Positions 2,683 to 39,800 of a stretch of 64,000 bases of DNA are shown here, piece after piece. Both the position numbers and the translations under genes were made by a program. The stretch comes from Bdellovibrionia bacterium. Its GTDB lineage: Bacteria > Bdellovibrionota > UBA1018 > JBILEK01. Position 1 is the first letter of the stretch, and each line of letters opens with the position of its first letter. The DNA lies in contig JBILEK010000003.1 of the NCBI GenBank assembly GCA_044352155.1, positions 834 through 64,833 of the forward strand. The letters run 5' to 3'. Under the pieces are notes generated by a model. The model ran no database searches. It saw only the letters and a program-made list of their open reading frames with translations, and had not been told where the DNA came from.

Positions 2683-4233
2683 TTATGAACTGCACTGAGA
2701 TTCAAGACCAAAGACGTAATCCCCTAGTTCGTCGTTCCAGAACTCCCCGTTGAAGTCCCAGTAATACTGATGCTGTTTTGCTCGCGGAGTGTTTTGTCCT
2801 CGCAAGCGTCCTTCTGCAGGTGATTTCCCATACAGAAGCTTGTCTTTTGCGCGCCCGAGCATCTCGATCTTAATGAAGCTCATCTTTTCAAAATCGGAGA
2901 TCAACGCGGCATGGTGATCCAAAAGACTGTTTTTGACGAAAGCTCCGCCCAACTGGCGTACTGACTTCAGTCTCCACTGGAGGACTTGGCGAAGAAATCC
3001 TGGAAACCCCTCACGCAACTGATGCGACACTCCCGGCTGCAAGGAGTCGAACTGGCGGATCGCACTTTGCTCTGCTTGAATCGAGCCCTCTGATGCGACC
3101 AGGGTTTGAAAATAAGCGCCCCGTACAAATCGATTGATCACACGATTGAGCTCGTCTTGGGTGTGCAGTGGACTCTCGAGAGCTTGTTTACCGATTTGAT
3201 AGAACGGATCAAGCCGACTCGCGTTTTGCTCCAAAAACTGCTTCATGCGCTGTCCAAGAGGCAAGTAGCGCTGATCAAATTCTTTAATAGCTTTGTCAGT
3301 ATCCGCGTACAAGCAGAGCATCAAGAACGTCTGTGCACGCAGCACTTCAACCTCTGAGTTGTAGATAAACTGCAGCGCAGGTGCTTTGTAAGTGACCAAG
3401 CGTCCTAGCGTGCGGTTGTACTCTGCCTGGGCAAATGCATTCCAAGCTTGCTCAAAGAGGATATCCGTCCACACGAAACTTGATTTAGGGATTCGGTCCC
3501 ACTCGCGATCCGCCTCTTCAAAACGCCCTGCCTGATAGAGTGTGCGCGCCACACTTGCTTGACAACGCGACTTTAAGTCTTCGCCCTGACGCACTTGTGC
3601 GGGAGACTGCGTCAGCGATTGCGCTGCGCTGACGCAAGCGCTGAAGTCTTGAAGCGCACTTTGCACATCCCCCGTCATCGCGCGCGAAACGCCCCTCAAC
3701 TGCATCGCCCATGGATAGAGAAAACTCTCCTTGCTTACGCCACCTAAGAGCGCGATCACTCTCCGCTCATCACCCTCCAGCAGTGCTGACTTCGCCATCA
3801 CAAAAGCAAACGCATGGCGATTCACTCCCGAGTAATCATCCTCAGTCGTATGTTGGAGAAGATATTTTCGGAGCAGGTCTGGTCCCACTCGCTCGATCAT
3901 CTCGTGAGTTTGCGTCAGAACACGCCGAATTGCGCTTCGGTTACCGCTCTGAAGAGTGCGAATGAAAAAATACGAGGCCGAGTGATGGAGCCCCGCCTTG
4001 ATGAGTCCCAAGGCTGTCCACGAGTACGCTTGAGCCTGAAGGCTTGGATTGCCCTCCACCGCATCAAAAGCGTAGCGCGCAGCTTTGAAATACTGGCCAC
4101 TTTCATAAAGAGTGCGAGCGTCACGAAGCGCTTGCGCCTCCTCGGAGCGGGCCGTGGCAGGCAAAAGCGCAATCAGGACGAGCGCTAGAGGCGCAAGCCA
4201 GCGCCGATGTTGAACGTGTAGTTCGAGTACCAC
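2683..4233 (-). CDS. Exported TPR-like repeat protein (516 aa), function unknown
   Basis: Long ORF with an N-terminal hydrophobic signal-like segment (RRWLAPLALVLIALLPATA) and helical repeat composition. Its stop (TAA 2683-2685) overlaps the start region of the downstream TPR gene. Confidence 0.5.
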   Translation of the reverse strand: MVLELHVQHRRWLAPLALVLIALLPATARSEEAQALRDARTLYESGQYFKAARYAFDAVEGNPSLQAQAYSWTALGLIKAGLHHSASYFFIRTLQSGNRSAIRRVLTQTHEMIERVGPDLLRKYLLQHTTEDDYSGVNRHAFAFVMAKSALLEGDERRVIALLGGVSKESFLYPWAMQLRGVSRAMTGDVQSALQDFSACVSAAQSLTQSPAQVRQGEDLKSRCQASVARTLYQAGRFEEADREWDRIPKSSFVWTDILFEQAWNAFAQAEYNRTLGRLVTYKAPALQFIYNSEVEVLRAQTFLMLCLYADTDKAIKEFDQRYLPLGQRMKQFLEQNASRLDPFYQIGKQALESPLHTQDELNRVINRFVRGAYFQTLVASEGSIQAEQSAIRQFDSLQPGVSHQLREGFPGFLRQVLQWRLKSVRQLGGAFVKNSLLDHHAALISDFEKMSFIKIEMLGRAKDKLLYGKSPAEGRLRGQNTPRAKQHQYYWDFNGEFWNDELGDYVFGLESQCSS

Positions 4234-15768: not shown

Positions 15769-16392
15769 CTATCTCCCGGACTTGCGCTCAAAGTACTGAA
15801 GATCAATAAACAAAGCAGATGCGACGAGTACCAATCGCTCCTCATAGCTAAGCGCCTCGTCTATGAACTCAAGCTCAAAGCGATCCGCATCCGTAAACCC
15901 TTCGCGCAGGAGGCCTCCCCACTGCTTTCGCACAACTGCACGCTCTTGTCCGCGCGCCTTAAAAGGAAACGTCCATGGCTTCCAAATGGGAGAGCGAACT
16001 TCTAGCTCCACTCGTCCTTGGGGATTTTCTAAGTCAAACTTTTTTTGCAAAAACGAAAAGCGCTGTTGAAGTGCCCCTAAACAGGCTCCCTCAGGGCTAA
16101 ACACCTCTAGTCTCTGAAAGAAGAATCGAAACGGATGATGTGCACGAGCGACGACGGATTTGTTCGAAGAGAAAATCAAAATATCAAAAGTTCTCCAGTG
16201 CCCGAGCATCTGGCGCATCAAAAAACCAAGCACTCCTTTCTGTTGCTCTGCTGCAAACCCTGCAACATTGCCGTCGATTTGGATTTCGTACTTGTTGCGC
16301 GTCTCAAACCCTAGAAGCTCAGAGAGCTCGCGTCGTTGTTGAATACTGAGGCTCTTGGCTGATCCAAGTTGATCCATGATGAGCTGATCCAT
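15769..16392 (-). CDS. Scramblase-family (PLSCR/Tubby-like fold) protein
   Basis: Pattern matches phospholipid scramblase family (GNVAGF...EQ...F..L..Q..G.WR.F.I...EVFSPEGACLGALQQRF...F.L....G). Inference from motif memory. Confidence 0.5.
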   Translation of the reverse strand: MDQLIMDQLGSAKSLSIQQRRELSELLGFETRNKYEIQIDGNVAGFAAEQQKGVLGFLMRQMLGHWRTFDILIFSSNKSVVARAHHPFRFFFQRLEVFSPEGACLGALQQRFSFLQKKFDLENPQGRVELEVRSPIWKPWTFPFKARGQERAVVRKQWGGLLREGFTDADRFELEFIDEALSYEERLVLVASALFIDLQYFERKSGR

Positions 16393-17945: not shown

Positions 17946-19106
17946 CTATGCTGCCGCAAGCGTCGGATCGGCACGTAAAAGCTCCACATACCACTCAGGA
18001 GCGGCGAATTTCTCTCGCGGAAACGGAATCCGGTTGAGCTCAATCTCGTGCATGAAACTCGGCAGATTCCCCACCGCGATCATCTCTCCAATGATCTTTC
18101 CATCCTGCGACTTACCCCTCTGAACAAAGCGATAGATGTCGCGGATCTGGTAGCGTCCCTGATCATCTACTTCTGGAATCACTTCCGAAATATGTGTGAC
18201 CTTGCGTGTGCCATCGGACATGCGCTTGATCTGAACGACGATGTGGATTGCAGCCGAAATCTGTCGACGAATCGCAGCTACCGGAATGTTGGAGTCGCCC
18301 ATCATGGAAAGTGTCTCAAGACGCACCAACGCATCGTAGGGCGTGTTCGCGTGGGTTGTACCCATGGAGCCGCCGTGCCCCGTGTTCATCGCGTTGATTA
18401 AATCTAGCGATTCTGCTCCTCGCACTTCCCCGACCACAATTCGATCAGGCCGCAAGCGCAGAGCCGACTTCAGCAAGTCGCGAATTGAGACCGCTCCCTG
18501 ACCGCGCTCATCTGCATGCTTGGTCTCAAAATAGATCACATGAGAGGTTGCGATCTTAAGCTCAGAGGAATCCTCAATGATCAAAAGTCGTTGATTTCCT
18601 GGAATGCGAGATCCCACGACGTTGAGTAACGTCGTTTTCCCTGAGCCCGTGCCACCTGAAATGATCATATTGCGCGCAAGATAAACGCATACGTCCAGAA
18701 ATCGCGCAGCATCTTTTGAGATCGAACCACGGTTGATGAGATCGACGAAAGTGGGAGAAGTGCGCGAAAACTTTCGAATCGAGAGTGTGCTGCCGTTTCG
18801 AGTGGGACCCGCTTTAGAGACAGGGGGAAACACTGCAGCCACGCGCTCTCCTGTAGGGAGACGTGCATCTAAGATTGGGTGATCGAGATCAATTCTTCGT
18901 CCCACGGATTGAGCAATGTTTCGGATCGCAGCCTGAAGCGCCTGCTCGTCAATGAACTGTGCTGATGTTTTTTCAAGCATCCCTTTGCGCTCAACAAAAA
19001 CTTCTTTTGGGCCGTTCACGAGCACTTCGGTGACCGAATCGTCTTCTAAGTACTCAGCGATTGGACCTAAAAAAGTCTTAATTGAATCGCGAAAGACTTC
19101 ACTCAT
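17946..19106 (-). CDS. cpaF: CpaF/TadA-family type II/IV secretion ATPase
   Basis: VNGPKEVFVERKG N-domain, Walker A GGTGSGKTT, RIVVGEVRGAES, His box GHGGSMGTTHANT. Confidence 0.8.
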   Translation of the reverse strand: MSEVFRDSIKTFLGPIAEYLEDDSVTEVLVNGPKEVFVERKGMLEKTSAQFIDEQALQAAIRNIAQSVGRRIDLDHPILDARLPTGERVAAVFPPVSKAGPTRNGSTLSIRKFSRTSPTFVDLINRGSISKDAARFLDVCVYLARNMIISGGTGSGKTTLLNVVGSRIPGNQRLLIIEDSSELKIATSHVIYFETKHADERGQGAVSIRDLLKSALRLRPDRIVVGEVRGAESLDLINAMNTGHGGSMGTTHANTPYDALVRLETLSMMGDSNIPVAAIRRQISAAIHIVVQIKRMSDGTRKVTHISEVIPEVDDQGRYQIRDIYRFVQRGKSQDGKIIGEMIAVGNLPSFMHEIELNRIPFPREKFAAPEWYVELLRADPTLAAA

Positions 19107-19651
19107 TCAGAGACAAGCTCCCGCACAACTAAGGTGCCTTCCATCCCATTGACCGGGCAGTAGAACCTGAATTTCCCTGGAGTGGAGGGAGTGAAGGTGA
19201 TTTCTTCGATTTTTTGAGCGCGCACTTGTTTACGGACATTAAACGCGTCCATCATCACGCAGAGCGTGCCTTTGGAAGCACCTGTGACAAAAAGGCGCAC
19301 TGGCACATCGCGAGTCACAAAAACGGTTTTAGGGAAATACCCGAGATCCCCTGCAATCAGCGCAATTTCTTGCACTCCTTTGGTCCGATCAGGAACCAAA
19401 GACTGAAGGCGATCAAGCGAATTTGTTTTTGGTGCAGCAGGCACTTCGTCGCCGGGAGGGCTTACGGACCCAAGCGAAGCAAGCGCACGCCCGGAGTGAG
19501 GTTGCATTGGCTCAAAACCAAAGCGTGACTCTGCGAAAGTCTCGCCTGAGTCACGCGCTTTAGGGGGTGGAGGCAAGAACACGACATCCGCCAAAACAGG
19601 CGCACACCAGAGCAACAAACCTAAACTCATGACCTTGAGGGCTCTTTCCAT
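19103..19651 (-). CDS. Exported hypothetical protein with cupredoxin-like C-terminal region (start chosen at MERALKV signal peptide; ORF track allows 19807)
   Basis: Signal peptide MSLGLLLWCAPVLA, poly-Pro linker, C-terminal beta-rich segment with FYCPVNGMEGTLVV resembling a cupredoxin C-M end but lacking the usual His. The stop overlaps the cpaF start by 4 nt, implying co-transcription. Confidence 0.4.
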   Translation of the reverse strand: MERALKVMSLGLLLWCAPVLADVVFLPPPPKARDSGETFAESRFGFEPMQPHSGRALASLGSVSPPGDEVPAAPKTNSLDRLQSLVPDRTKGVQEIALIAGDLGYFPKTVFVTRDVPVRLFVTGASKGTLCVMMDAFNVRKQVRAQKIEEITFTPSTPGKFRFYCPVNGMEGTLVVRELVSE

Positions 19652-19833
19652 AGATCGACCTCTCTCCCCTTCATTTCGGAGTAAAGCGCGCGTCTCTGAA
19701 TGGGGAAGATTTGCAGTACGACATCCCTCTGACACCGGAGCGCTAAACGGATCAAAACCTTCTAAACTCAACGACTTAAAATGTAACCTGACGTCAGTAC
19801 CCGTCAAAAAAACGCTCCTCTATCCTAAAAAGT

Positions 19834-22068
19834 ATGCACTCAATCAGGGGCTTTACTCTTGTCGAGATCATGATTGCGATGGGGCTTACAGCGAGCGTGG
19901 GGCTTGGATCACTTGCGCTCCTCGACCACTTAGGCAAGGGGATCAAAAGTGTGACCGATCGAGCCGATATCGTAAGCACGCTCTCGAGCGTTTCGACTTT
20001 GCTCTCAGATCCTACTCTGTGCGCAAGCGCACTTACCGCCGTACAAAAAGGAACCCCCTCCAGAGTGCGCGTACCGGACTCACTACGATCGAGCGACGCA
20101 GGAGTTTTAGGGGCTCCTTACTTTAGCTGGGAGAGCGAAGTGGGGCAGTTCCAAAAAGTCTCTTCCGATCAAATCCGCTATGTCGGGCTGATGGGCGTTC
20201 CAACGCAGGATGGAGGTCTTAGCCAAGTCCTCTTAGCCTCAGCCGATGCGGCTGAGCTTTTTGGACTCCCACAGACGATCCCAGGCAACACCAACGTCCG
20301 CATCGCAGAGATGGGTCTCGTGCGGATGACGCCAAAAGAGGACGTCCGTATCGACGGCGAGTCCTGTAGGGTGCAAGTGCAGTTGAGGATGGTGTTTGAA
20401 AAAGTGGACCGCCGTATCTCTACCGGCGCGTCGCGCTTTGAGCGCAATTTCTTACTCAATGCTCGCGTAAAATGTCCAGAAGGCCGCATGGAAGGAGTAC
20501 ACCCCCTCCAGAGCTGTGGCCTGCAAGCTCCGAACAATGCAGATCTCTGCCTTGAGCTTGGCGGAGTCTACTCCCCCACTCGTCCACCCGCTGATCGCTG
20601 CTTGTTTGAGCAAAAGCGTTTTGCAAACCCTCACCCTGCCGGATCGCCGTCCGTAATCGACTATGACACCGCGATTGAGCTTGATCCAAACCCACTGCAA
20701 GGCGCCGCTGTTTCACGTGGGATCACTGATGTGTTTCCTGGACGGATCCAGCTTCACGGAAACGGTAACACCGTACAAACGCTCGACACAGCGATTGATC
20801 AGCACGGACCCAGCGGACAACTTGCGTTTTCGCGCTCCACCGGATCACTTACAGGTCGAGGACTGATCCGTGGTCAGCCTGATAGACTCAGTGCTCAAAC
20901 TAGCCTCGGGGTGATCACTTTTCGTGGACTCAACTCCGTCACCCATCCAACATACAGTGGCGCTCCCCATAACGGTCGCGAGTTTGTTCAGGCAGTTGGA
21001 ATCACCGCAAGCACCGACGGCAACTGGACACAAAACTCGAGCCCCTCACGAATCAACTTCACGACTACGCGCAGTGGTGTTGACACCTGGTTTGCACGCC
21101 CGCCGTTGCAATCGAGTTTTGGCAATCGGCCCGAACTGATCCGACAATACCCAGACTCTCCGGATGCAAACGCAATGACGATCCCAACGCTTTCAGTACG
21201 TGAAAGTCAAGCTCTTGAGGCGGCTGCAGAGATCCGTTTCGGAGTGGCCACCCGTATGGGTGACGGCAGTCCGCGCAGTGAGCCTCAACCTGGGCAGAGT
21301 TACAATGGAGGCACTCATCCCAACACGACGGCCTCAGGTTTAAGAGTGACTCACCGTCGTGGAGGGACCTTAAGAGTGCTCACCACTCCAGTCAGCACGC
21401 CGGGTTATGGCTACCAGAGCAAACTTGCTCTTAGCTCAGAGAGCGACCTCATTCAAGTACTCCAGCTCCGTAACAACGAGACCGGCGAGAACCTGGATCT
21501 TGAAATGCGCGATCTTCACGCACGAGACTTGTACCTGGCTCAGAACAACCCTAAGCAAAACTTAAGCGTCCTTGCAGCCGAAAACGACCAAGGACGAGCG
21601 CGCTGGCTTACGCCAAAGTATATCAAAATGGCAGGAAGCGTAAATCTCACCGATAGCTTGCAAGGAGAGCTAAATCTCTCTCGCTGTATCGCAAGGAGCC
21701 AGGGAGGAAGCACTCAGAACATCCATGGCATCTACGACGGAACAGATCTCAACCAGATCAACTGCCACAATCTCCAGTTCACCAATGGCGACGCAATCCC
21801 TAACGGACATCCGATTCTGGATCGAATCGGAATGACCGATACCGTAGGCACTCGCCGCTCCCCGACTCCGACTAACCCCATACAATGGGACATGTGCTTT
21901 CTCTCCGAGAACGTCATCATGCCCTCATCAGCCGCCACCGCCACTAACAGCAGCCCCACAGGTTGTGTGATCGATATTACTCCAAATGGCTGGCGGCTCA
22001 CCGGGATCAAGAGCTCTCATACTGCAATTAAGTGCGAAGCGTTCTGTGTGAAAATGGTGTTTGAATGA
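19834..22068 (+). CDS. Large (744 aa) type IV pilin-like / pseudopilin-like protein with class III (prepilin) signal and Cys-rich Gly/Ser/Thr/Asn-rich extracellular region
   Basis: N-terminus MHSIRG-FTLVEIMIAMGL is a canonical prepilin peptidase motif (G at -1, F at +1, E at +5, hydrophobic helix). About 14 Cys in the remainder. Coding frame verified from ATG 19834. Confidence 0.7.
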   Translation: MHSIRGFTLVEIMIAMGLTASVGLGSLALLDHLGKGIKSVTDRADIVSTLSSVSTLLSDPTLCASALTAVQKGTPSRVRVPDSLRSSDAGVLGAPYFSWESEVGQFQKVSSDQIRYVGLMGVPTQDGGLSQVLLASADAAELFGLPQTIPGNTNVRIAEMGLVRMTPKEDVRIDGESCRVQVQLRMVFEKVDRRISTGASRFERNFLLNARVKCPEGRMEGVHPLQSCGLQAPNNADLCLELGGVYSPTRPPADRCLFEQKRFANPHPAGSPSVIDYDTAIELDPNPLQGAAVSRGITDVFPGRIQLHGNGNTVQTLDTAIDQHGPSGQLAFSRSTGSLTGRGLIRGQPDRLSAQTSLGVITFRGLNSVTHPTYSGAPHNGREFVQAVGITASTDGNWTQNSSPSRINFTTTRSGVDTWFARPPLQSSFGNRPELIRQYPDSPDANAMTIPTLSVRESQALEAAAEIRFGVATRMGDGSPRSEPQPGQSYNGGTHPNTTASGLRVTHRRGGTLRVLTTPVSTPGYGYQSKLALSSESDLIQVLQLRNNETGENLDLEMRDLHARDLYLAQNNPKQNLSVLAAENDQGRARWLTPKYIKMAGSVNLTDSLQGELNLSRCIARSQGGSTQNIHGIYDGTDLNQINCHNLQFTNGDAIPNGHPILDRIGMTDTVGTRRSPTPTNPIQWDMCFLSENVIMPSSAATATNSSPTGCVIDITPNGWRLTGIKSSHTAIKCEAFCVKMVFE

Positions 22069-22083
22069 GCTACACTGACGTTC

Positions 22084-22914
22084 GTGCCTCCTCAGCCCAA
22101 AAAATCCTTTGAAGATGCGCTCCATGCGTTTCATGCCCACTACGATGCTCTTTGGGGTGAGCGATGGGAGTCTCTTAAACGTGCCCTCAGGGATGAGGAT
22201 TTTAAGAGCGCTTGGCGCAATCCGTTTCCTGGCCTTAAAGAACAGTATTTTCTTGACCCTGCCTCCATTGCAGTTGCTCAAGCCCTCCAAGTACAACCCG
22301 GCGATCGTGTGCTTGATCTGTGCGCAGCTCCGGGCGGAAAAACTCTCATCCTCGCTCAATCTCTTGCCTCGCACGGCGAGCTCACTGCAAACGAGCGCTC
22401 CTCCGAGCGTCGTGCACGTCTCAAGCGCGTGCTTGTGGAGTATCTTCCACCTGAGCTACGCGCACGCATCCGCGTGACCGGACATGACGCCACTCGCTGG
22501 GGCCTCCACGAGCGAGACCACTACGATCGCGTGTTGCTGGATGCGCCTTGCTCAAGCGAGGCGCACGTGCTCCGCGACCCGAAGGCGTTAGCGCTTTGGT
22601 CACCCAAACGCTCTGAGCGACTTGCGATCCAAGCGTACGCTATGCTTGCCTCAGCGCTTACAGCACTAAAGCCCGGCGGTGTGCTCGTCTACTCGACTTG
22701 CTCAGTGGCTCGGGCAGAGAACGACCAAGTTCTCCAAAAACTCATCACTCGCAGAGGATCAGAGATCACTCTGCTTCAGACCCAGCTCAACATCGGTGAG
22801 GCCACTGCGCACGGGTGGCAGATTCTGCCCGATCGCGATCGCGCAGGTCCGATGTATTTCAGCAAACTTAAAAAACTGGGAGCGCACTCGACTGTTGAAG
22901 GAACTGGTTTTTAA
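22084..22914 (+). CDS. NOL1/NOP2/Sun-family RNA m5C methyltransferase (RsmB/RsmF-like catalytic domain)
   Basis: SAM motif DLCAAPGGKT, catalytic motifs LLDAPCSSEA and VYSTCS. Confidence 0.8.
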   Translation: MPPQPKKSFEDALHAFHAHYDALWGERWESLKRALRDEDFKSAWRNPFPGLKEQYFLDPASIAVAQALQVQPGDRVLDLCAAPGGKTLILAQSLASHGELTANERSSERRARLKRVLVEYLPPELRARIRVTGHDATRWGLHERDHYDRVLLDAPCSSEAHVLRDPKALALWSPKRSERLAIQAYAMLASALTALKPGGVLVYSTCSVARAENDQVLQKLITRRGSEITLLQTQLNIGEATAHGWQILPDRDRAGPMYFSKLKKLGAHSTVEGTGF

Positions 22915-22915
22915 A

Positions 22916-22951
22916 ATGCCCGAGGCGCAGTCGGTCTGACCGTCGCCTCGG
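22916..22951. terminator. Bidirectional stem-loop between convergent rsm-like gene and the act operon
   Basis: Perfect 10-bp arms GCCCGAGGCG/CGCCTCGGGC (22916-22925 and 22942-22951) with an inner CGGTC/GACCG sub-stem; T/A-rich on the upstream side. Confidence 0.5.
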
Positions 22952-22999
22952 GCATCTCACAGCTGTACGAGCTCAGATGTTGGTTCTGGAGACTTCGAA

Positions 23000-24217
23000 C
23001 TACTGATGGTGGTGGTGCACTGATTCTGCCAGGCGCGGATCGCCGATGGCAACGACATTGTTCTTCGACAAGAAGCGCAATGCTGCAAACAAGAATAGCC
23101 CCAAGAAACCAAGCGTCACACCAATCTCAAAGATCCCGACGCGCGGGCCATCTTTGAAGAAATTGGGCTGAACAAGCCACAAGATATCGATCCACTGCGC
23201 GATCAGCATGAACACTGCAACTGCGACGAGCCACTTCTCGTTGCGTTTCGCGTCGCGACGGATCAACGCGAAAAACGGAACCATAAACTTACCGAACAGC
23301 AAGAACAAGGAGACATACATCCAGGATCCGCCGTTTTGCATGCGCTTGAGGTAAAAGCCCGTCTCCTCAGGCTGGTTTGCATACCAAATAAGCAAGAACT
23401 GAGAGATCGCGATGTAGGTCCAAAAAACCGTGAACGCAAACATGAACTTTCCAATATCGTGGAGATGATTTTCGTTCACGATCCCCGCAAGCACGCCCTT
23501 GCGCTTGAGCACGACCGTAAAGATCGCAAGCATCGCAAGTGTTGAGTAAAAGAGCCCCGCAAAGCAATAGATCCCAAAAATCGTCGAGAACCAATGCGGA
23601 TCAAGCGACATGATCTGATCAAAGCTCATCATTGTGAACCCGATCGCAAAGAAAATCAGAAACGCTGGCGTCAGCACCCGATTTTTGAGGGTCAGTCGGT
23701 AATCACCACTAGAGTCCTGGCGCACGGAGTTTCCGACCATCTTCCACGAAAAGAAAAACAAAATCGCAAATCCCACAAGATTGCGGATCGTAAAGAAACC
23801 CGCATTCAAGTAGCCCGATTTACCTCGAAGGATTGGATCCTTCATCACAGCCTCATGATCCATCCAGTGGTGATAAATGGGGTGAAGCGCCAGGCACACG
23901 CCAATCAAACTTAAGAGTGCGATCGGGAGATAAGCCGTAAACGACTCAGCCAAGCGACGCACTGGGGCTGACCACATTGCTCCTGTGATCCACTGAATTG
24001 CCGCGAAAAAAATCCCCCCCAGCGCCAAGCTCATAAAAAAGAAATGATTCACTAGATAGATCGACCAAGCACGATCTGCATTCGTGCGCCACAAAAAGAG
24101 AAACGACGCAAGTCCCGCAAGCATCAATGCAAAACACAGAAACTTGATCTCAGACGGTGTGGCGTAGGTCCCGGGGTTGCGAACCTTAAGGTCGTGGTGA
24201 CTTGCGTTTGCGCCCAT
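23000..24217 (-). CDS. actF: Alternative complex III subunit ActF (NrfD/PsrC-like integral membrane subunit); natural C-terminal HHHHQ tail
   Basis: Polytopic membrane protein, last gene of an actABCDEF-ordered operon. Confidence 0.7.
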   Translation of the reverse strand: MGANASHHDLKVRNPGTYATPSEIKFLCFALMLAGLASFLFLWRTNADRAWSIYLVNHFFFMSLALGGIFFAAIQWITGAMWSAPVRRLAESFTAYLPIALLSLIGVCLALHPIYHHWMDHEAVMKDPILRGKSGYLNAGFFTIRNLVGFAILFFFSWKMVGNSVRQDSSGDYRLTLKNRVLTPAFLIFFAIGFTMMSFDQIMSLDPHWFSTIFGIYCFAGLFYSTLAMLAIFTVVLKRKGVLAGIVNENHLHDIGKFMFAFTVFWTYIAISQFLLIWYANQPEETGFYLKRMQNGGSWMYVSLFLLFGKFMVPFFALIRRDAKRNEKWLVAVAVFMLIAQWIDILWLVQPNFFKDGPRVGIFEIGVTLGFLGLFLFAALRFLSKNNVVAIGDPRLAESVHHHHQ

Positions 24218-24220
24218 AGA

Positions 24221-24778
24221 TTAGAAACCTTCTGCTGCTTTCATTTCTTCGTTCGTCGGACTCTTCGCTTTTTGGAGTGCCCGAATGTAGTGAATGATCG
24301 CCCAGCGCGTCTGAGGGTCCACTTGCTGAGCATAGGAGGGCATTAGGTTCTGCCCTTTGGTGATCACGTGATAAATACTGCCGTCCGGATAGCCGCGGAT
24401 CTTGTCGCTTTGAAGGGAAGGCGGTTGTGGATATTTTGGGACGATCGAGCCGTTTCCTTCGCCATAAGTCCCATGGCAAACAGCGCAATAAACGTTGTAA
24501 TACTTTTGGCCTTCTTGAAGGACTTGACGGTTTTTAGGACGCGGATTTCGAAGACTTTTCCCAGCCTCTTCCAGCGTCTCGGGGACTTCATCTTTGACAA
24601 AGTTACGATGAATCGTCCCCTTCACCGGCATGCGAGGCGGGTACTCTTCCTGCGCCTTATAGCTCGGCTGATAAGCCATATCCGGCATGTAAATGAAGTT
24701 GGGATCTTTGTGCTTCCCACATCCCATCAACCCAAGCGCGAGAGCAGCCACCGGAGCGAGAGTGAATTGTTTCATCAC
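24221..24778 (-). CDS. actE: Alternative complex III subunit ActE (monoheme cytochrome c lipoprotein)
   Basis: Lipoprotein signal LALGLMGC, single CAVCH heme motif. Confidence 0.75.
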   Translation of the reverse strand: MMKQFTLAPVAALALGLMGCGKHKDPNFIYMPDMAYQPSYKAQEEYPPRMPVKGTIHRNFVKDEVPETLEEAGKSLRNPRPKNRQVLQEGQKYYNVYCAVCHGTYGEGNGSIVPKYPQPPSLQSDKIRGYPDGSIYHVITKGQNLMPSYAQQVDPQTRWAIIHYIRALQKAKSPTNEEMKAAEGF

Positions 24779-25399
24779 TTAAAACCACCCTTCATTGACG
24801 CACTTCTTTACTTCAACGGCGCCTGCTGAGCGAAGGAGCTGCTCTGCTTCTGCTGCATCAAACTTTTTGAAGCGAGCATGCTTTTTGACCTCTTCCTCGT
24901 CCTCCGCATCAAACTCAGGCTCCTCAATTACAATCGCAAAGCGATCGTTCGTGAGCGAAGGATCGAGGGCGCGTTTGTTTAGGTTCGGGAGACGGTTGAG
25001 TGCGAGCATCCCGAGCAGGGTCGAAATCCCAGCCAACAGAATCGTAAACTCAAACAGAACCGGAATGAACGCAGGCCACGAGTTAAACGGCTTACCTCCG
25101 ATGTTGTGAGCCCATCCCTGTCCGCCAAGGAAGTTGCCCAAAAAGATCTCGTGCGACGTGTAGTACTGAAGCCCAAATCCAATGCACGCTCCGGTTACGC
25201 CACCAAAAAAAGTAATCCAAGGGAGCCGAGAGCGCGCAAGTCCCTGCGCCTCGTCCATCCCATGCACCGGGAAAGGAGAGAACGCATCGAAGAGCTCGTA
25301 ATTGGCAGCACGCACTTTTTTCATACCCTCAAGCATGGCTTGAGGATTCGGGAAATAACCCAACACCGCTTTTCCACGCGGCAAAGCGTGATCAGACAT
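24779..25399 (-). CDS. actD: Alternative complex III subunit ActD
   Basis: About 200-aa membrane-anchored protein between actC and actE; operon position. Confidence 0.65.
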
Positions 25400-26789
25400 G
25401 AGAGCCTCCCTGCGTTTTTGATCCTGGCGGATCCATTACGCCTTTGATCTCTGACATCGCAAGCGTCGGCAGGAGCCGGCAGAACAGTAAGAACATCACG
25501 AAAAACAAACCAAACGCCCCAAAAGTCCATCCCCAATCGTACCAAGTCGGGAAATACATCGCCCAACTTGAAGGGATGAAGTCTTTATAGAGAGAGGTGA
25601 CCGTAATCACGTATCGCTCAAACCACATCCCGATGTTGACGTAGAGTGAGATGACAAACATCACGCCGACGTGCCTGCGCAATTTCTTGAACCAAAACAA
25701 CTGTGGGAAAAACACGTTGCACGAGACCATGATCCAATACGCCCACCAGTACTCACCAAAAGCACGGTTGATGAAGACGTATTTCTCAAATGGGTTACCC
25801 GAGTACCAAGCAATAAAAAACTCGCACGCATACGCGTAGCCCACCATCATGCCTGTCGCCATGATGATCTTGTTCATTTTTTCCAAGTGATCGAGCGTGA
25901 TGTATTGCTTGAAGTTAAACACTTCGCGCATGAACACGAGCAACGTCACAACCATCGCAAATCCAGAGAAAATGGCTCCGGCCACGAAGTAAGGTGGAAA
26001 AATCGTCGTGTGCCAACCCGGGATCATCGAAACTGCGAAATCAAACGAAACGATCGTGTGCACCGAGAGAACCAGAGGCGTCGAAAGGCCCGCAAAAATC
26101 ATGTATGCAATTTCATAATGGGACCAGTGCCGGTTGTTTCCGCGCCATCCCAAAGAGAGCATCGTTAAGATAGTTTTTCGGATCCCCGGTTGCGCACGGT
26201 CACGCAGCGAGGCCAAATCTGGAATCAGCCCCACAAACCAGAACAGAAGAGAAATCGTGAAGTACGTTGAAACTGCAAACACGTCCCAAAGAAGCGGGGA
26301 TCTGAAGTTCACCCACAACTGCCTCTGGTTTGGATAAGGAAGTAGCCAGTACGCCGCAAACCAAGGCCGCCCCGTATGGAGAAGCGGGAACGAGAGCGCC
26401 GTGATGACGGCAAAGATGGTCATCGCTTCGGCTGAACGGTTGATCGCTGTGCGCCACTTCTGTCGGAACAAAAACAAGATTGCAGAGATCAAAGTGCCCG
26501 CATGCCCGATCCCGACCCAGAACACGAAGTTCGTAATGTCCGTGCCCCAACCTGCCGGTTGATTGATTCCAAGCACCCCTTGTCCGCGCGTGACAAAAGA
26601 AAAAACAACGAACGCCCAGATCGCAAGTGCGGTCAGAGAGAAAAGAAAAATCCCCCACCAACGGCGCGTCGGAAACGTCTCAGCCGGAAGCGCAACGTCT
26701 TGATTGACGTCGGCATAGGTTTTCCCTCCCTGAACGAGGACTTCGGGCACATACTTCGTTTGATCCATCTCAGTGGTGTGCGTCGCCAT
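25392..26789 (-). CDS. actC: Alternative complex III subunit ActC (NrfD/PsrC-family quinol-interacting membrane subunit)
   Basis: 465-aa polytopic membrane protein following actB. Confidence 0.75.
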
Positions 26790-29700
26790 CGGCGGCTCCG
26801 TTCTTTTCGGTGTTGCGGACCACGTTTCTCACTTTGGAGAGATACGAAATCATCGGTTTTGCGTTTAAGATCTCAAGCACCCGGAACGCCCGAGCGTCTT
26901 CGCGGAGCTTGGAGACCTTGGAGTTCGGATCATTGACGTTGCCGAACACGATCGCCTCTGTTGGGCACGTCTGCTGACATGCTGTCTTAAGATCGGCATC
27001 CGTGATCTTGCGGCCTTGCGCCTTTGTCGTGTCGCGTGCCGTTTGAATGCGCTGAACACAGAATGAACACTTCTCCATCACCCCGCGTGTCCGCACGGTG
27101 ACATCTGGGTTCCACGCCAAATTCATCGTGTCTTTGTAGTCCTTCCAGTGATCAAAGAAGTTAAAGCGGCGCACTTTGTACGGGCAGTTGTTTGCGCAGT
27201 AGCGCGTGCCCACGCAACGGTTATAGGTCATTTGATTCAGACCTTCTTCGTTGTGCGAAGTCGCGATCACCGGACAGACCGTCTCGCAAGGTGCGTTCTC
27301 ACAGTGTTGGCAGAGCATCGGCTGAAACACGACTTCAGGATCGTTTGCAGGACCTGAGAAATAGCGATCGATCTTAATCCAGTGCATCTCTCGAGAGAAA
27401 CGCACGCGATCACGACCGACGACGGGGATATTGTTCTCCGCTTGGCAGGCGATCACACATGCGCCACATCCGGTGCAGGAACTCAGATCAATCGCCATCG
27501 CCCAACGGTAGCCTTGCGAGTAGTCGTGCTTAGGCCAGATGGTCGGCACAGGCTCCATGCGCAAGTGCGGATCCGTATGCGCCTCCGCTTTTGGGTTTTT
27601 ACGAAACTCCGCGAGCGTGATGTCGTTGACGATTGGGCGTCCTTCGGTACGGTGGTGTCCTTGCGTAATCGCAAGCTCAAAGCGCATTCCCGTCTTTACG
27701 ACTTTCACTCCGCTTCCGGACAGAACGTACTCTCGATCTGTGCGCGAGAGTTTAAACGCGTTCCAGCCACAGTTTTGGCCGACTTTACCCGCGCGCACTC
27801 GTCCATAGCCTGAGGCGATCGCAATCGTGCTCTGATGAAGACCCGGCTGCACAAGTACAGGGAGCTCAATACGACTCTCCGGCTTTTCAGCAAGCGAGAC
27901 CGCAACGACATCTCCGGTTTTGAGTTGATTTAAGCGCGCAAACTCCACCGAAACTGCAGCAAAGTTATCCCAAGTCGCTGTCGTCATCGGATCCGGCATC
28001 TCAAGGAGCCAAGGGTTGTTGGCGAAACGTCCATCCCCCATTGCAGCAGATGAGTAAATTGCAAGTCGAGGCTCGTTGCTCGCAGGTTTAAACGCAGGAA
28101 TTACTGGAGCACTTCCCGCACGGATGGAGCGCGCACTTCCGCGTGAGGGCAGCCCGACCCAGCCCTTTTGGAGAGCATGATCCCAGCTCAGTCCCTTAAA
28201 TCGCGCTGCAAAGCCTTTGCGTAGCACATCATACCAAGTGCCCGAAGCGCTCATCTTAAGTCCCGCAGCCTTGCCCCATTGCAAAAGCGAGTCTTCAAAA
28301 GCGCGCGTATCGTGCAGAGGCGCGATCGCAGGCTGCTGAAGAGCATAAACTCCTACCGCAGGCTCAGCGTCGCCCCAGTTCTCAAGATAGTGATGATCCC
28401 CTGCGACCGCATCGCCTAAGGCTGCGGTCTCATCGATCCGATCTGCAACTGAGACCACGAACTTCACTTTTTTCAGAAGAGCTTCAAAACCTGGAACACT
28501 GTATACGGGGTTTGAGCGATGCAGGATGAGGACATCAACAGAGCCTGAACGCATCTCTTCCATCAGCTTAGCGAAGTACTTATACCCTCGACCTACGTAC
28601 GAGCGCCCGGTCATGACGGTCTGGCCTTCGTTTCCGAGAGCGGAGTTCAGCATCGCAACCACGCACTGAAGTGCGAGCGAATCCTCGGAGCGCGAGTCTG
28701 CCCCACCTGCGACGACGAGCGATGTTCCGCGCGCGGATCTTAGCGCTGCCGCTGCAGCTTTGAGGCGCTCCAGGGCCTGCGCGCTCCCCACGTCTTTTGC
28801 AACGGCATCAAGCGTATAGCCTTGCGCTCGAGCCATCTGAGGCGCGATCTCGGAGAGAAGTGCCATGGCGATCTTGAGCTCATCACCAGGGCGGATGGCC
28901 ACACGCTCATCTGCGTTCGCTCCCGTAAGTGAGTAGTTGGACTCAAAAGCAAAGAGTCGAGACATCTTTGCTCCAGAAGCACGAGCGGAGTCGAGCTTGC
29001 GATTGGACATCCAAGCGCGCGCGTTTGACTCACTTTGGGGCCACGCCCCCAAAAAATCCCCACCAATCGAAACCACGACTTGGGCCCGAGTGAAATCGTA
29101 GGCCGGGATCGCTCGATTCCCCGTAAGCAACTCGGCCGCATCCGCCTGTGAGTCGAGATCCAAAGGCTCAAAATGAATAACTTGCCCGTCGCGGAAAGCG
29201 CCACAGAACTCGCGCGCAAGCGCAAGAGTTTGAGGTCCTGGGGTCACCCCGAGCAGCATGCGCACGCGAGCAGCACTTGAAAGCGCGCTCACGACACGCG
29301 CATCGAGCTCATCCCAGGGCACTTGTTTTTCAGCGCCTGTCGCGCGATCAATCAGCGTCGCGCCCTTGGCTCGATCCAGATCATAGAGATTGAGCACCGA
29401 AGCCTGCACCTGTGCTGAGACCGTGCCGCCTGTGGTCGAATCAAGATCGTTGCCTTCGAGCTTGATGGGGCGACCTTCGCGCGTTTTCACTAAGATTGCG
29501 GGCGTATCCGACACATCTTTACAGACTGAAGCGTAGTAGTTTGCCTTGCCTGGCGTGATCTGTTCGGGCGGGACGACGTAGGGAATGATCTTGTGCACCG
29601 GCCGACGTGCACACGCGAGCGTCGACATCGCAGTCGCTGCGCCCATCAAGGTCAAAAACTCGCGTCGCGCAACACCTTGCGTGTCGAGTTTCTCGAGCGC

Positions 29701-29856
29701 TTCTAAGGTCTCGATGGGCTTGTGGAGAAACTCTCGACCTCGCGACTCCTGCTGAGCCTCATCACTCCAGTACTGAGCGGAGAGCTCTTCAAGTCCCGAC
29801 CAGTGACGGGGGGGAGTAAATCCTTCGGCGGAAGCGGGCGTGTTTTCGTCTTTCAT
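26770..29856 (-). CDS. actB: Alternative complex III subunit ActB (molybdopterin-oxidoreductase-like domain fused to 4Fe-4S ferredoxin domain), Tat-exported
   Basis: Twin-arginine signal [20 protein letters not shown]; multiple ferredoxin Cys clusters ([41 protein letters not shown]...CQQTCP); 1028 aa. Confidence 0.85.
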
Positions 29857-29865
29857 GATGATTCC

Positions 29866-30528
29866 TTAATAGTGGCAGACTGCGCAGTTAAACGGCGCAA
29901 CGGGTTTGCCTTTGGCTTCTTCTGCCGTGAGTCCGGGGTGAGTTTTTTCAACAAGCCACGCTGGGGTGGTCTGGCCACGATGGCACTCAAGACACCATCC
30001 CATGGTGAGAGGTTTGTCCTGATAAACGACTTCCATATCCTGAATCGGACCGTGGCACTGCTGACAGGAGATCCCCTTTTCGATGTGGGGGCGATGATTG
30101 AATTTCGCGTGATCCGGAAGCTCATGAATTCGGATCCACTGGATCGGAGTGTTTGACGTACAGTTAAACTGATCGTCTGGCTTGCAGTGCTCCCAGATCT
30201 TTTGAACTTCGGGGCTATCGGTCTTCACCACGCGGTGGCAGTTCATGCAGACTTGCACCGCAGGCACCGAGGCGTGAGGACCTTTTTCGACGTTGATGTG
30301 GCAGTACTTACAATCGATCTTGAGCTCCCCTGCATGGAGCTTGTGGCTATAAGCAATGGGCTGCGTGGGCATGTACCCCTGGTTCGTGGACGTTGGAAAA
30401 ACGTACGCGATCACTGGGATCCCTAGAAGCACGCCTAAAACCAGAGTGAAAAAACCGAGCTTCTTTTGAACGCTCCAATTCCTCTGGACACCACCCGCCG
30501 GATCTTCTGCCATAAGCACCTTTAACAC
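29866..30528 (-). CDS. actA: Alternative complex III subunit ActA (pentaheme cytochrome c, membrane-anchored)
   Basis: Five CxxCH motifs (CKYCH, CMNCH, CQQCH, CLECH, CAVCH) after an N-terminal TM anchor. Start may be the second ATG (30513). Confidence 0.85.
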   Translation of the reverse strand: MLKVLMAEDPAGGVQRNWSVQKKLGFFTLVLGVLLGIPVIAYVFPTSTNQGYMPTQPIAYSHKLHAGELKIDCKYCHINVEKGPHASVPAVQVCMNCHRVVKTDSPEVQKIWEHCKPDDQFNCTSNTPIQWIRIHELPDHAKFNHRPHIEKGISCQQCHGPIQDMEVVYQDKPLTMGWCLECHRGQTTPAWLVEKTHPGLTAEEAKGKPVAPFNCAVCHY

Positions 30529-36800: not shown

Positions 36801-39800
36801 ATGACGTCAAAAACAAGCGCGCTACGATCCCTGATCCTGCTGATGGCTTTAAGTGTTTGCGGGTATTCGTCGGCTCTTGCGTCTACGCGTCCTACGATCG
36901 CGGGCCTAAAAACCGTGCTCGTGATTCGCGACAAAAAACAAACACTCGAACGCTTTGCGCAAAACCTTCCTGCGGGCGTCAAAATCGTCTCCTCATTTGA
37001 CGATCTCGTCCTTCTCGAAGGGATGACCTCAGAGTCAACGAAAGACCTCAAAAAGCGTCTTCACGCTCGCTTTATCAAGCAAGGTCAAAACGTCTCCTCT
37101 CCGATCACTGCTCTGAGTGCGCGTCATCGGAGTAATCAAGCTCTCGACGTCCCTCCGCGCCAGGAGACTTCTCACCGATCGCTTGCAGCACTCACGGATC
37201 GATGTCCTGATGGGCGCTCGCGCCTTTGGGCTCAAGAGTCCTTAGATGCACCGTTGTTTGAGACGGCTCTCTCACTGATTGATCCAAAAATTCAGGCGCA
37301 AAGCGCGCGCGTTGCCGTACTGGATTCAGGGTTTGACGCAACTCAAGCTGACGCGTTTAGTGCGATCGGTGGAGTACAGCCTCGTGATGGTGTGCTTGCA
37401 GGAGATCGCAGACCCGTAGGGAGCGTCTCCTGGCCCACGGACTCTAGCAAAGATCCAAGCACTCCGATCACAGGACGCCCCGGATTTGATCCGGGCGGTC
37501 ACGGCACCATGGTCGTAAGCACTATTGCCGCAAACGACGGGCTTGGAATCGCAAAAAACATCGAACTCTCTTTGTATCGAATTACTCCCGAGGGAGATGG
37601 AGGGTCTACTTCTTCAGTCTACATCGACATTGCACTTTGGAGAGCTTGTCAGGAGATGCGCGACCCGGCGGGCCTTACGCTCATTAACCTCTCGTGGGGC
37701 GGTCGCTTAGATGAGCAACAAGTAGAGGATGCGGAAGATCTTAAACTGGATCAAGAAATGGAGCGACGCTTAGCTGAGGCAGGATGCCTTGTTTTTAAGG
37801 CAGCAGGCAATGACAACTTTCGAAACGCTCGACGTGACGAAAAACTTGATGACGCCACTCTACGGGTCGCTGCCACGGATCTCACCCGAAAGCTAAGCTC
37901 TTTCTCAACGCGAGGTGAAGTCTCAGCGCCCGGCAGTGACGTGTGGGTTGTACAAAGTGCGCAGACTAAAGTCTCTGATCGCGCCTCAAGCAAGTGTGAG
38001 GCGTTCACACATCCCTCGCGACCACGTCGATTCATCAATGGGACAAGTTTTGCGGCCCCCTTCATGACTGCGGTTGCCTCTCAGGTCGTGCGCGCGCTTA
38101 AAGCGGGAGATCAGTTTGCAACTCTCTCAACACGCGACCGAATCAAGCTTGTGAATCGAATTTTAAAAGCCTCGACTCTCTCAGGCTCTGTGAATCTAGT
38201 GCGCGCAGTTCAGATCGCTTCTGAATGGAACAAAAATCCGATCCCCGGATCCCCAGATGAGCTTGAAGCTCTCTTAAGCGCAAATCCAAATCCGAGTTGT
38301 AAAGAAGAAAAACCCGTGCGCTGCTCACGCCTGACTGACCCGATCCTTGTTAAGTCGTGCGTACTTCAAAGTCGGCTTCGCGTTGCAACTTGCCCATCGG
38401 TCGATCCCTCTGTGCTTGAGGATCTGGCGATTACTGCTTTCAAGGAGGCAGAGATTGAGCTTGGGCTAAAAGCCGCAGATCTCTTTGCAGAGCACTCAAA
38501 CAACAACAAAGCAAAGCGCTCGATTTTAAAAAGTGGGATCGATCAGTTCGTCGCACGCACTGGAAAAAACGACTATAAAATCGCGCCCGTCCTCACTCCG
38601 AATCTCTTGCGCGCTCTGATTATTCCTTATCTTGAAGCTTGCACGCTCGAGCGCAACTGCGATGGAGAGTTAAGCTTGGTCCTCGTTCGAGCTGCGCTAC
38701 TCTCTCGCTCTATCGCATTTTCACTCTCTGAAGGAGTTGATACCGAGACTGGAGAGGATCGAGGGAGTCGGGATACCGAAAAAGCAATGTCACGACTTTT
38801 CGAGCTCTCCCTTAAAACGATTTCCTTGGATGGAGCTCTTCAAGTCCTTAAAATGCTCCAACGCGCTTCGTTTGGAGACACCCCAAGCCCTGAAGAAATC
38901 CTGAAAGAAAACTCCGAGGATCAAAACTACTTCAGCCGCACTCAGATCCCAAGACTCGCTCCCAGTGTCGTTGTGAGGTTACTGGATGCTTTCATCCGAG
39001 TGACCAAACCTGGGTCCGCAATCAGCGTCGTCTCCCAACGCATGGAAGCGCGCGTTCTCGAAGAAATGGCCAAAAGAAACGACTACTTTCTTGGAAAAAC
39101 CGAAAAGTTTGTCCTCTATGTCGAGCAAATGCCAGAGCGCGGAAGCTTTGATGCTACTCTGGAGCGTAACCGCACAAGAATCGATCTCGCGCTTGAGAGC
39201 GGCCAGTGGCAAGCGCTCGCTCCGATCGAGATGCATTACGCTCTCCGAAATCCCCAAGGATATCCAAAGTGGAAAGAGGCTTACTTAAAAATGCTGATCG
39301 AGGCCTCAGAGCTTGCTCTTCAGGGGAGAGGCTGGGGCGCACAAAACGATAACGAAATCGTGATGCTCGCACTTGAAGAGTGTTTTGCTCCTCGCTCAAA
39401 GCTCTCTCCAAGTGATCAAGCCACTTTACTTGAGTCGCTGAGGAGTGCTCTGTTAAAGGCCAGAAACTCTGATGTGCTCTTAGAGCTTGAGTATGCGGAG
39501 CGGCTCAATCTGAGCATCGGACAAACTGCAACAGAGGGGCTGTTTAGCTCTTACAAAGAAAGAGCCGAAGCCGAAAAAAATGGCCTCACTTTCAAGTCTC
39601 ATCCCCTTTTGAGTCCATCCTTGATGGCTCATGTGCGTTTGCGACTAGCCGCTGGAGTCCTAAGCTCTCGTGGACGGCACCGAAAATTCAATCGTATCCG
39701 CTTTCAGGATTTGATCGAACGCCTTGCGATCGATCACGCAAAAGCGACTCCGATCCAAAGCTCTTCGGACGCAAGCGTGCTCCCACTCACAGCCTTTGAG

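Follow-up and report, generated by a model that had tools for sequence, protein, structure and literature searches.

In the window, by which we mean the whole 64,000-nucleotide stretch of DNA that was analysed, an ORF running from ATG to stop on the forward strand encodes a 744-aa protein that we consider likely to be a modular (large minor) type IV pilin-like protein whose distal modules are presented at the end of a filament. It is probably displayed at the filament tip for ligand binding. The mature form was computed to have 738 aa, a mass of ~79 kDa and a pI of 6.8, and an earlier sequence-only reading was right that the mature part is far above the size of an ordinary pilin, which it exceeds about fivefold. 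The features on which the analysis turns are the following.

19834..22068, + strand: gene for the modular prepilin-like protein, from the ORF, its composition and the homologues P0002, P0005 and P0006
19834..19851, + strand: leader peptide MHSIRG (Pfam N_methyl, TIGR02532), with predicted cleavage after Gly6 by prepilin peptidase
19852..19923, + strand: hydrophobic alpha1-N segment FTLVEIMIAMGLTASVGLGSLALL, residues 7-30, the sole Kyte-Doolittle peak above 1.2 and conserved in the family
19924..20619, + strand: remainder of the putative pilin module (residues 31-262), from the alignment; a long amphipathic helix and then beta strands, with six conserved Cys
20620..21546, + strand: central region, residues 263-571, G/S/T/N/P-rich and free of Cys, with conserved motifs
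21547..22065, + strand: C-terminal module, residues 572-744, with six conserved Cys and predicted to form an all-beta sandwich
22084..22914, + strand: RNA m5C methyltransferase of the RsmB/F type, 276 aa, consisting of the catalytic domain only (Pfam Methyltr_RsmB-F, E 7.9e-37)
19103..19651, - strand: secreted cupredoxin-like protein, 182 aa with the start as called in relatives (Pfam Cupredoxin_1, E 2.6e-9)
17946..19106, - strand: TadA/CpaF/VirB11-like secretion ATPase, 386 aa (Pfam T2SSE, E 2.7e-52)
19781..19801, + strand: candidate promoter or operator, a conserved 21-nt motif (ATGTAACCTGACGTCAGTACC) that lies 32 nt upstream of the ATG

The protein begins MHSIRG|FTLVEIMIAMGL, and the class III (prepilin) signal that had been read there proved to be real and conserved. 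It consists of a six-residue basic leader, Gly-1, Phe+1, Glu+5 and ~24 hydrophobic residues; F7-T-L-V-E11 is followed by IMIAMGLTASVGLGSLALL. The 744-aa protein marginally passes the Pfam N_methyl cut-off (21.7 bits vs 21.2) and falls slightly under that of TIGR02532 (15.9 vs 16.3), and N_methyl is matched by each of the four full-length members of the family (lowest E-value 1.2e-5). Gly-1, Phe+1 and Glu+5 are invariant in these four proteins despite overall identities of 30-35%, and the leaders of the relatives (9-13 residues) are likewise short, basic and Gly-terminated. The window protein and three other full-length relatives also fit the PROSITE-style pilin pattern. The protein has one hydrophobic segment only (residues 3-33), within which alpha1-N would act both as an inner-membrane anchor and as a filament-assembly interface. 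A six-frame scan of the window revealed no other prepilin-type ORF starts.

The exported part that follows alpha1-N comprises about 715 residues. Even if the pilin module is generously set at 262 residues, some 480 residues lie beyond it, which is the layout of a modular pilin (sensu Raynaud et al. 2021); as the extra module corresponds to no catalogued domain, membership of that class is by architecture only. The protein had been described as Gly/Ser/Thr/Asn-rich, with about 14 Cys that suggested a disulfide-bonded surface domain. The enrichment is real (G+S+T+N make up 31.9% of the protein vs 21.4% in 36 other window ORFs), and such a composition, together with paired Cys, is what one expects of a surface-type protein that is exported, but the cysteines number 12. 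They form two clusters of six, one in the putative pilin module (residues 63, 178, 214, 228, 239 and 256) and one in the C-terminal module (618, 644, 688, 711, 734 and 738), and all 12 are conserved in the family alignment, implying an oxidising, exported location. The central region between them has 44 columns that are invariant in four members, with motifs that include LGxITFRG, DGxWxxxSSPxRxxF, IPxLSxRxxQ, xRFGV and LSSE, and its identity to the relatives is 31-59%. Invariant residues of the C-terminal module are W685, D686, C688, C711, W720, C734 and C738, and the protein terminates in KCEAFCxKMVFE. No internal repeats were found in the 744 residues.

A full-length AlphaFold model built from four sequences had a mean pLDDT of 33, with the pilin module below 50 and the central region not folded. 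The order of elements in residues 31-262 (helix to ~71, strands from 106 to 213) resembles a pilin head, but because pLDDT is below 50 the pilin fold of this part is not established. Modelled alone, the last 173 residues gave a beta-sandwich with a pLDDT of 77, and the C-terminal module is predicted to be an independently folding all-beta sandwich. A search for lectin, vWA or peptidase folds at the C-terminus had been suggested. Pfam, NCBIfam, PHROGs, a PDB sequence search and a fold search all failed to detect such a domain, and the structural matches in the fold search were at noise level. Nor did the central region match anything in Pfam, PHROGs or PDB. An F5/8 type C match at residues 364-425 was discarded as noise (E = 0.1, in one of eight members), and a phage tail-fibre relationship, suspected from the central-region motifs, was dropped when PHROGs and phage tblastn searches gave no match. 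Past the first ~45 residues there is no similarity to known minor pilins. Likewise, Pfam gave no match to the PilY1/PilC C-terminal beta-propeller (IPR008707; PF05567), and the C-terminal model is a sandwich and not a propeller.

How does this architecture compare with those already described? Modular pilins are widespread and thought to be tip-exposed, and the window protein resembles them in having a class III signal and a putative pilin module to which one or more bulky modules are added, in its presumed display at the tip and in its length, which lies within their range of up to 860 aa (PMC8179133). Those of Streptococcus sanguinis include PilB, whose extra module is of the vWA kind, and PilC, which has a lectin module (PMC8179133). 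Unlike the surveyed modular pilins, the window protein has extra modules without a known signature, a diderm host and no adjacent pil genes; lacking a known signature, it would have escaped the survey that Raynaud et al. 2021 made of InterPro (PMC8179133). The predicted order of parts (pilin module, beta-rich linker or repeat region, C-terminal beta-sandwich) is also that of the type IVb minor pilins CofB of ETEC and TcpB of V. cholerae, which keep Glu5, are located at the tip and initiate assembly; in CofB the C-terminal sandwich is an H-type lectin domain (PMC8179133). Discoidin I, HPA and SLL-2 also have H-type lectin domains. Another parallel is with the KilN/TadG tip pilins (Herrou et al. 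2025, PMC12075869), which are large, have an uncharacterised distal fold with many predicted disulfides, occur as several paralogues per genome with genes scattered from the machinery, and have been proposed to act as a variable recognition tip. These have TadE/G-type N-termini and form L/M/N triplets, whereas the window protein has an N_methyl signal and is solitary or in tandem with its own paralogue, and no homology to KilN/TadG was detected. Finally, ComZ of Thermus thermophilus and GspK of the T2SS, both proposed filament caps, are pilin-like proteins that owe their larger size to a non-pilin domain, which is a beta-solenoid in the former and an alpha-domain in the latter (PMC8179133). 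In both, unlike the window protein, this domain sits inside the pilin beta-sheet, and no similarity to either was detected. GspK is also not known to carry Glu5.

The family is very rare, fast-evolving and from uncultured bacteria. Among the candidates compared, word-indexed homologue searches gave only the 744-aa protein itself and two relatives; among the matches listed, a scan of GTDB genomes gave only an unrelated Coraliomargarita prepilin N-terminus, and scans of JGI metagenomes gave no additional loci. A TPR protein (P0011) was rejected as a relative because its match, to the DYDTAIELDPNP stretch, is spurious. The pilin gene is the most divergent of its neighbourhood, with 58% identity vs 71-94% for six neighbours. 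Its variable stretches, residues 241-280, 321-360, 601-640 and 681-720, show 35-45% identity to the orthologue. One relative has tandem paralogues (806 and 756 aa) as well as a dispersed one (797 aa). Such fast divergence and multiplication of paralogues among relatives accord with a component of the tip that is exposed and variable.

The neighbouring genes give little guidance to function. The gene had been described as divergent from an orphan CpaF ATPase. A TadA/CpaF-like ATPase is indeed near, but the divergent gene immediately upstream encodes the cupredoxin-like protein and overlaps the ATPase gene by 4 nt. The ATPase scores 296 bits against TIGR03819, under the cut-off of 373; it is 94% identical in L001, and the cupredoxin-like protein 83%. 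As for the m5C methyltransferase-like gene placed 16 bp downstream, Pfam bears out its identity, but the gap, up to a GTG at 22084, is 15 nt. No terminator-like site was found between the two genes and their adjacency is kept in five lineages, but it offers no functional clue and a linkage to the pilin is not supported. The methyltransferase was also considered as a pilin N-methylase; this was rejected since it carries DAPCSSE and YSTCS, corresponding to the cysteine motifs (PC and TC) found in RNA m5C methyltransferases, and matches the RsmB/F profile strongly. Neither the 64-kb window nor ~18 kb of flanking DNA contains genes for a prepilin peptidase, PilB/PilC/PilQ or other pilins.

We propose that the N-terminal helix would insert the protein into the inner membrane, where a PilD-type prepilin peptidase would remove MHSIRG and N-methylate Phe7, and that the periplasmic part would fold with up to six disulfides. 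By its alpha1-N helix the protein could then enter the tip or priming complex of a filament, either a type IVa pilus or a T2SS-like pseudopilus, whose genes presumably lie elsewhere in the genome. This would present the central and C-terminal modules distally, most likely to bind a ligand in adhesion or recognition. The analysis gave no support to the suggested part in recognizing prey or host, nor to a predatory way of life.

Four other explanations were weighed. The protein might be a pilin-like anchor with no pilus involved: a periplasmic or cell-surface protein that uses its class III signal only for export, processing and anchoring in the inner membrane or a short stub. The sugar-binding proteins of the archaeal bindosome have a class III signal without filament display, many prepilin-like proteins of Planctomycetota and Verrucomicrobiota may likewise be anchors without a pilus, and to our knowledge many bacteria encode prepilin-like proteins never demonstrated in a filament. 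Moreover, class III signals on non-pilus proteins are documented (PMC3047682), no filament machinery or partner minor pilins lie beside the gene in any of three contexts, and a 79-kDa subunit would be bulky for passage through a secretin. Nevertheless we regard a mere anchor as rather unlikely: conservation is strict at Glu+5 and throughout the alpha1-N assembly interface, as incorporation into a filament requires and beyond what an anchor needs, and modular pilins of comparable or larger size (CofB, S. sanguinis PilB) have been demonstrated or modelled at pilus tips (PMC8179133). That the same architecture displays an enzyme on the filament, with catalytic distal modules (for example a glycanase or peptidase) in place of adhesive ones, seems to us very unlikely.

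It is quite improbable that the protein is a tip pilin of a Tad (type IVc) system, that is, a functional analogue of TadG/KilN working with the neighbouring TadA/CpaF-like ATPase, the divergent gene pair then belonging to a single dispersed Tad-like apparatus. An ATPase-cupredoxin operon is divergent from the pilin gene in both the window and L001; in Bdellovibrio the tad genes are dispersed, one tadA paralogue and a tadG each standing alone, and the Flp pilin is a substrate of PilD (bioRxiv 10.64898/2026.07.08.737194); and tip pilins of the KilN type are large and disulfide-rich, with genes apart from the machinery (PMC12075869). Against this, the protein starts with an N_methyl-type signal (G|FTLxE), and TadE/TadG-type families gave no Pfam or NCBIfam match even at E up to 1-10. 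The window also lacks platform, secretin, TadB/C, RcpA and Flp genes, the TadA-like ATPase is a lone one, and the third paralogue (P0006) sits elsewhere without an ATPase neighbour. The synteny of ATPase and pilin genes carries little weight because the genomes compared are close relatives in which flanking housekeeping genes are also syntenic. A functional linkage of pilin and ATPase is not supported. The remaining explanation, that this is not a pilin at all but an ordinary signal-anchored or secreted protein whose prepilin-like start is fortuitous or untranslated, turns on the start codon. The NCBI record of the same protein has 729 aa and starts at Met16, no Shine-Dalgarno sequence is evident before ATG 19834, and the TIGR02532 score misses its cut-off by 0.4 bits. 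We consider this explanation extremely unlikely, since the residues preceding Met16, G-F-T-L-V-E included, are invariant or conservatively replaced in relatives of ~30% identity, every relative has its own short basic leader, and a start at Met16 would leave a truncated hydrophobic stretch without a positively charged n-region. The Met16 call conceals the pilin signal. An in-frame stop 14 codons 5' of ATG 19834 makes a longer form impossible.

A modular pilin of this kind follows a design that is already described; it is a well-defined, ordinary example that, on present evidence, leaves the general understanding unchanged. Were it displayed at a pilus tip, the protein would extend the repertoire to which type IV filaments owe their versatility by an effector module not yet catalogued, whose folds are probably new. 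It also lends support to a suspicion, already in print, that modular pilins are under-counted, their modules having no database signatures. Being rare, fast-diverging and expanded into paralogues, it is a candidate determinant of specificity for whatever surface the bacterium attaches to. Large, disulfide-rich KilN/TadG tip pilins with uncharacterised distal domains have been described (PMC12075869). A more speculative proposal, which we hold to be improbable, is that the giant pilins are interchangeable, fast-diversifying recognition tips of type IV filaments, with an unseen fold and one to three paralogues per genome, in a possibly predatory or epibiotic lineage. They would then be the type IVa-signal counterpart of the Myxococcus Kil 'Tips', and in a bolder version the pilins, the TadA-like ATPase and the cupredoxin-like protein would form a dispersed, unconventional filament system.

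The region upstream of the pilin gene gave no match in a search for sigma-54 promoters or in an Rfam scan. The 21-nt motif there has no other copy in the window. It is also found upstream of the orthologues in L001, L003 and L006 (chance expectation 0) and is a candidate promoter or operator.

Is the prepilin-type start of the 744-aa protein genuine or fortuitous? Its gene lies among the following features of the window.

17946-19106, minus strand: TadA/CpaF/VirB11-type ATPase gene, its start overlapped for 4 nt by the 3' end of the cupredoxin gene
19103-19651, minus strand: cupredoxin-like gene (182 aa, secreted), directly divergent from the pilin gene
19781-19801, plus strand: 21-nt motif ATGTAACCTGACGTCAGTACC (ATGTAACCnGACGTnAGTACC), conserved 5' of the 744/756-type orthologues
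19834-22068, plus strand: pilin gene, an ATG-to-stop ORF of 744 aa
22084-22914, plus strand: RsmB/F-type RNA m5C methyltransferase gene, GTG start, catalytic domain only

The protein begins MHSIRGFTLVEIMIAMGLTASVGLGSLALL, and a longer leader is impossible because an in-frame stop sits 14 codons 5' of the ATG. Its one hydrophobic segment is N-terminal. The Pfam N-terminal methylation motif (N_methyl) is matched with 21.7 bits, just over the gathering score of 21.2, and TIGR02532 is 0.4 bits too low (15.9 vs. a cut-off of 16.3). The classical pilin pattern is [KRHEQSTAG]-G-[FYLIVM]-[ST]-[LT]-[LIVP]-E-[LIVMFWSTAG](14), and the start matches it. No other ORF with a prepilin-type start was found when all six frames of the whole window were searched with a relaxed regular expression. 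The decisive evidence is comparison with three full-length relatives (P0002, P0005 and P0006). Each opens with a short basic leader of its own (9-13 residues), after which come G|F(T/S)LVE(I/M)M and a hydrophobic stretch. The residues Gly-1, Phe+1 and Glu+5 (numbered around the predicted cleavage site) are invariant across the four full-length members, and all four match N_methyl. Judged by this comparison the prepilin start is genuine, bearing out the class III signal that the sequence-only reading had claimed, and we regard a fortuitous motif as highly improbable. The product in the NCBI record (P0004) has 729 aa, which implies initiation at Met16 (codons 1-16 occupy 19834-19881); this start is probably mis-called, and it deletes the prepilin signature that the relatives conserve.

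The family to which the protein belongs is very rare. A word-indexed search of 5.8 billion clusters returned only the protein itself and P0002 (756 aa, about 57-58% identical). An exhaustive HMMER search with residues 35-744 against 1.84 billion representatives gave eight proteins at E ≤1e-3: the protein itself, P0005 (806 aa, 31% identical), P0006 (797 aa, about 30%), four C-terminal fragments encoded on short contigs (P0007-P0010) and one TPR protein. Scans of GTDB and JGI metagenomes added no loci among the matches listed, and all members originate in metagenome assemblies. At two loci, L001 (7488-12271) and L006 (9-1281), two giant pilins stand in tandem, an 806-type followed by a 756-type; in the relative from sample SRR29352984 (L001) the tandem proteins of 806 and 756 aa are 31-35% identical to each other's type. 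The same sample yielded P0006 on a separate contig (L004 1358-3751) in an unrelated context, with ABC transporters nearby, no ATPase or methyltransferase alongside, and a divergent gene whose 385-aa TPR-like product may have a winged-helix domain at its C-terminus. These arrangements indicate a paralogue expansion of the family. On a 1.3-kb NCBI metagenome contig (L007 545-887), pilin homology starts abruptly some 105 codons before the stop, with a minus-strand adh_short gene fragment directly on its 5' side; the contig is a product of chimeric assembly, or else the gene is a truncated remnant.

The mature protein would have 738 aa (about 79 kDa, calculated pI 6.8). Its Gly, Ser, Thr and Asn together make up 31.9% of residues, vs. 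21.4% in 36 other window ORFs, in agreement with the richness noted from sequence alone; the cysteines, put there at about 14, number 12. When the four full-length proteins and the four fragments are aligned, the protein seems to divide into four parts:

residues 1-30: leader and hydrophobic N-terminal helix (alpha1-N)
up to about residue 262: putative pilin module, with six conserved Cys (63, 178, 214, 228, 239, 256)
residues 263-571: central region, Cys-free and G/S/T/N/P-rich
residues 572-744: C-terminal module, with six conserved Cys

All 12 cysteines are conserved in this alignment, in two clusters of six, a pattern that speaks for up to six disulfides and so for an exported protein. In the AlphaFold model the putative pilin module has a helix up to about residue 71 and strands between 106 and 213. 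The model is of low confidence here (pLDDT <50 throughout); its order, helix then strands, is that expected of a pilin head. The central region was left unfolded by AlphaFold and has no internal repeats that we could find; 44 of its columns are invariant, and it carries several conserved motifs. Residues 275-286 (20656-20691), DYDTAIELDPNP, mimic the TPR repeat consensus, and it was through this stretch that the TPR protein (P0011) gave a spurious multi-stretch match; it was rejected as a family member. The C-terminal module, with invariant W685, D686, C688, C711, W720, C734 and C738, is the best conserved part among the fragments (39-51% identity in three, 33% in P0010). Modelled alone from eight sequences, it folds autonomously as an all-beta sandwich (mean pLDDT 76.7, pTM 0.73).

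Past the N-terminus nothing was matched by Pfam (all family members, scanned to E 10), by NCBIfam or PHROGs, by the PDB sequence library (profiles of the whole protein, central region and C-terminal module) or by tblastn against phage genomes. The lectin, vWA or peptidase fold that had been anticipated was not found. A filament-displayed enzyme seems to us quite unlikely.

The window, the near-identical locus L003 and L001 share a gene order: HrpB, scramblase, SthA-like, (STAS), TadA-like ATPase, cupredoxin, divergent pilin(s) and RsmB/F-type methyltransferase. Between the window and L001 the ATPase is 94% identical, the cupredoxin 83% and the pilin 58%, the lowest of seven genes compared; the pilin is diverging fast. 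The 21-nt motif recurs at L001 9931-9951, L003 4298-4318 and L006 446-466, in L001 and L006 inside the short gap that separates the tandem pilin genes. It has a palindromic core (TGACGTCA in the window copy), has no second copy in the window even at up to 3 mismatches, and may be a promoter or operator; searches of the upstream region for Rfam families and sigma-54-like sites found none.

The methyltransferase gene is adjacent to the pilin gene as described, with a gap of 15 nt after the stop (GTG at 22084) rather than 16 bp. The enzyme matches the RNA m5C methyltransferase profile, carries the cysteine motifs of these enzymes, and has no NusB-like or PUA domain. In five lineages its gene (L001 12287-13087; L005 521-970; L007 905-1327) invariably lies 3' of a 744/756-type pilin gene; the gap is 15-17 nt in four and 48 nt in L005, and the adjacency is kept down to 67% methyltransferase identity. 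Because there is no terminator-like site between the two genes, co-transcription is plausible. The synteny lies inside one clade only, and no functional link is evident from it.

What, then, might the protein do? We think it reasonably probable that the gene encodes a modular type IV pilin-like protein recruited to a tip or priming complex, with distal modules for ligand binding. In such a scheme alpha1-N would insert the protein into the inner membrane, a PilD-type peptidase would cleave after Gly6 and N-methylate Phe7, and disulfide-assisted folding would follow in the periplasm. Alpha1-N would then bring the protein into a priming or tip complex, that of a type IVa pilus or of a T2SS-like pseudopilus whose genes lie elsewhere, and the central and C-terminal modules, distally exposed, would bind a ligand. 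The analysis shows the conserved signal, export-type chemistry, multi-module size, a C-terminal module that folds by itself, fast divergence and paralogy; processing, entry into a filament, placement at its tip and adhesion are inferred. Neither the window nor roughly 18 kb past its ends yielded a platform protein, a secretin, a prepilin peptidase or another pilin. The earlier suggestion of a tip adhesin or displayed module is reasonable and borne out only in part. The expected folds, a functional tie to the ATPase and evidence of prey recognition were not found.

An anchored protein that merely borrows the class III signal and enters no filament is rather unlikely in our view. Could it instead be a Tad-type tip pilin partnered with the neighbouring ATPase? 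In Bdellovibrio the tad genes are reported to be dispersed, with tadG standing alone and a tadA paralogue isolated, and Flp processing to depend on PilD. However, the N-terminus is not TadE/G-like, and the P0006 paralogue has no ATPase neighbour. We consider this reading improbable. The 'orphan CpaF' gene is indeed divergent from the pilin gene, with the cupredoxin-like gene as the direct neighbour; no functional tie to the pilin was found. The ATPase scores under every NCBIfam equivalog cut-off, and the cupredoxin-like protein has YCPVNGM near its C-terminus without an obvious His ligand after the Cys. A cytoplasmic secretion ATPase and a periplasmic cupredoxin in one two-gene operon (17946-19651, minus strand) are an unusual pairing.

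The preferred reading, a modular pilin-like protein, has structural precedents in CofB, TcpB, ComZ and GspK. The modular-pilin design is known from Raynaud et al. 2021, who gave the definition, counted >1,200 such proteins in 264 architectures, of up to 860 residues, and noted that many more must exist with modules that lack signatures (PMC8179133). In Myxococcus, Kil (Tad) pili have interchangeable tips around the large disulfide-rich pilin KilN, with a distal domain that lacks PDB homologues; several dispersed paralogous clusters encode these tips (Herrou et al. 2025, PMC12075869). The window protein resembles these in its logic without being homologous to any of them. In sequence-level membership tests it passes as a bearer of a class III signal and fails as a TadE/G or PilY1 member. 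Its family is new, and belongs to a known kind of protein.

The window also holds an alternative-complex-III-like operon, rhamnose biosynthesis genes, and genes for an outer-membrane beta-barrel protein, for a protein with a flagellar rod or hook domain and for S8 and C25 peptidases, a content that points to a flagellated diderm and no further. The six genes of the alternative-complex-III-like cluster (22915-30528, minus strand), just 3' of the methyltransferase, encode a multihaem cytochrome, a molybdopterin/FeS-type subunit (1028 aa), a polytopic membrane subunit (465 aa) and three more proteins, of 206, 185 and 405 aa; the cytochrome was scanned with Pfam and the other assignments were read from translations. 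Sizeable ORFs at 2683-4233, 40238-41161 and 58529-59884 have no Pfam match. The peptidases are large secreted-type proteins, a 1135-aa subtilase (36801-40208, plus strand) and a 556-aa gingipain-type C25 peptidase (53803-55473, minus strand). A 207-aa protein (15769-16392, minus strand), conserved in L001, matches the eukaryote-type Scramblase family PF03803 over its full length (E 9.5e-33), a family that seems uncommon in bacteria.
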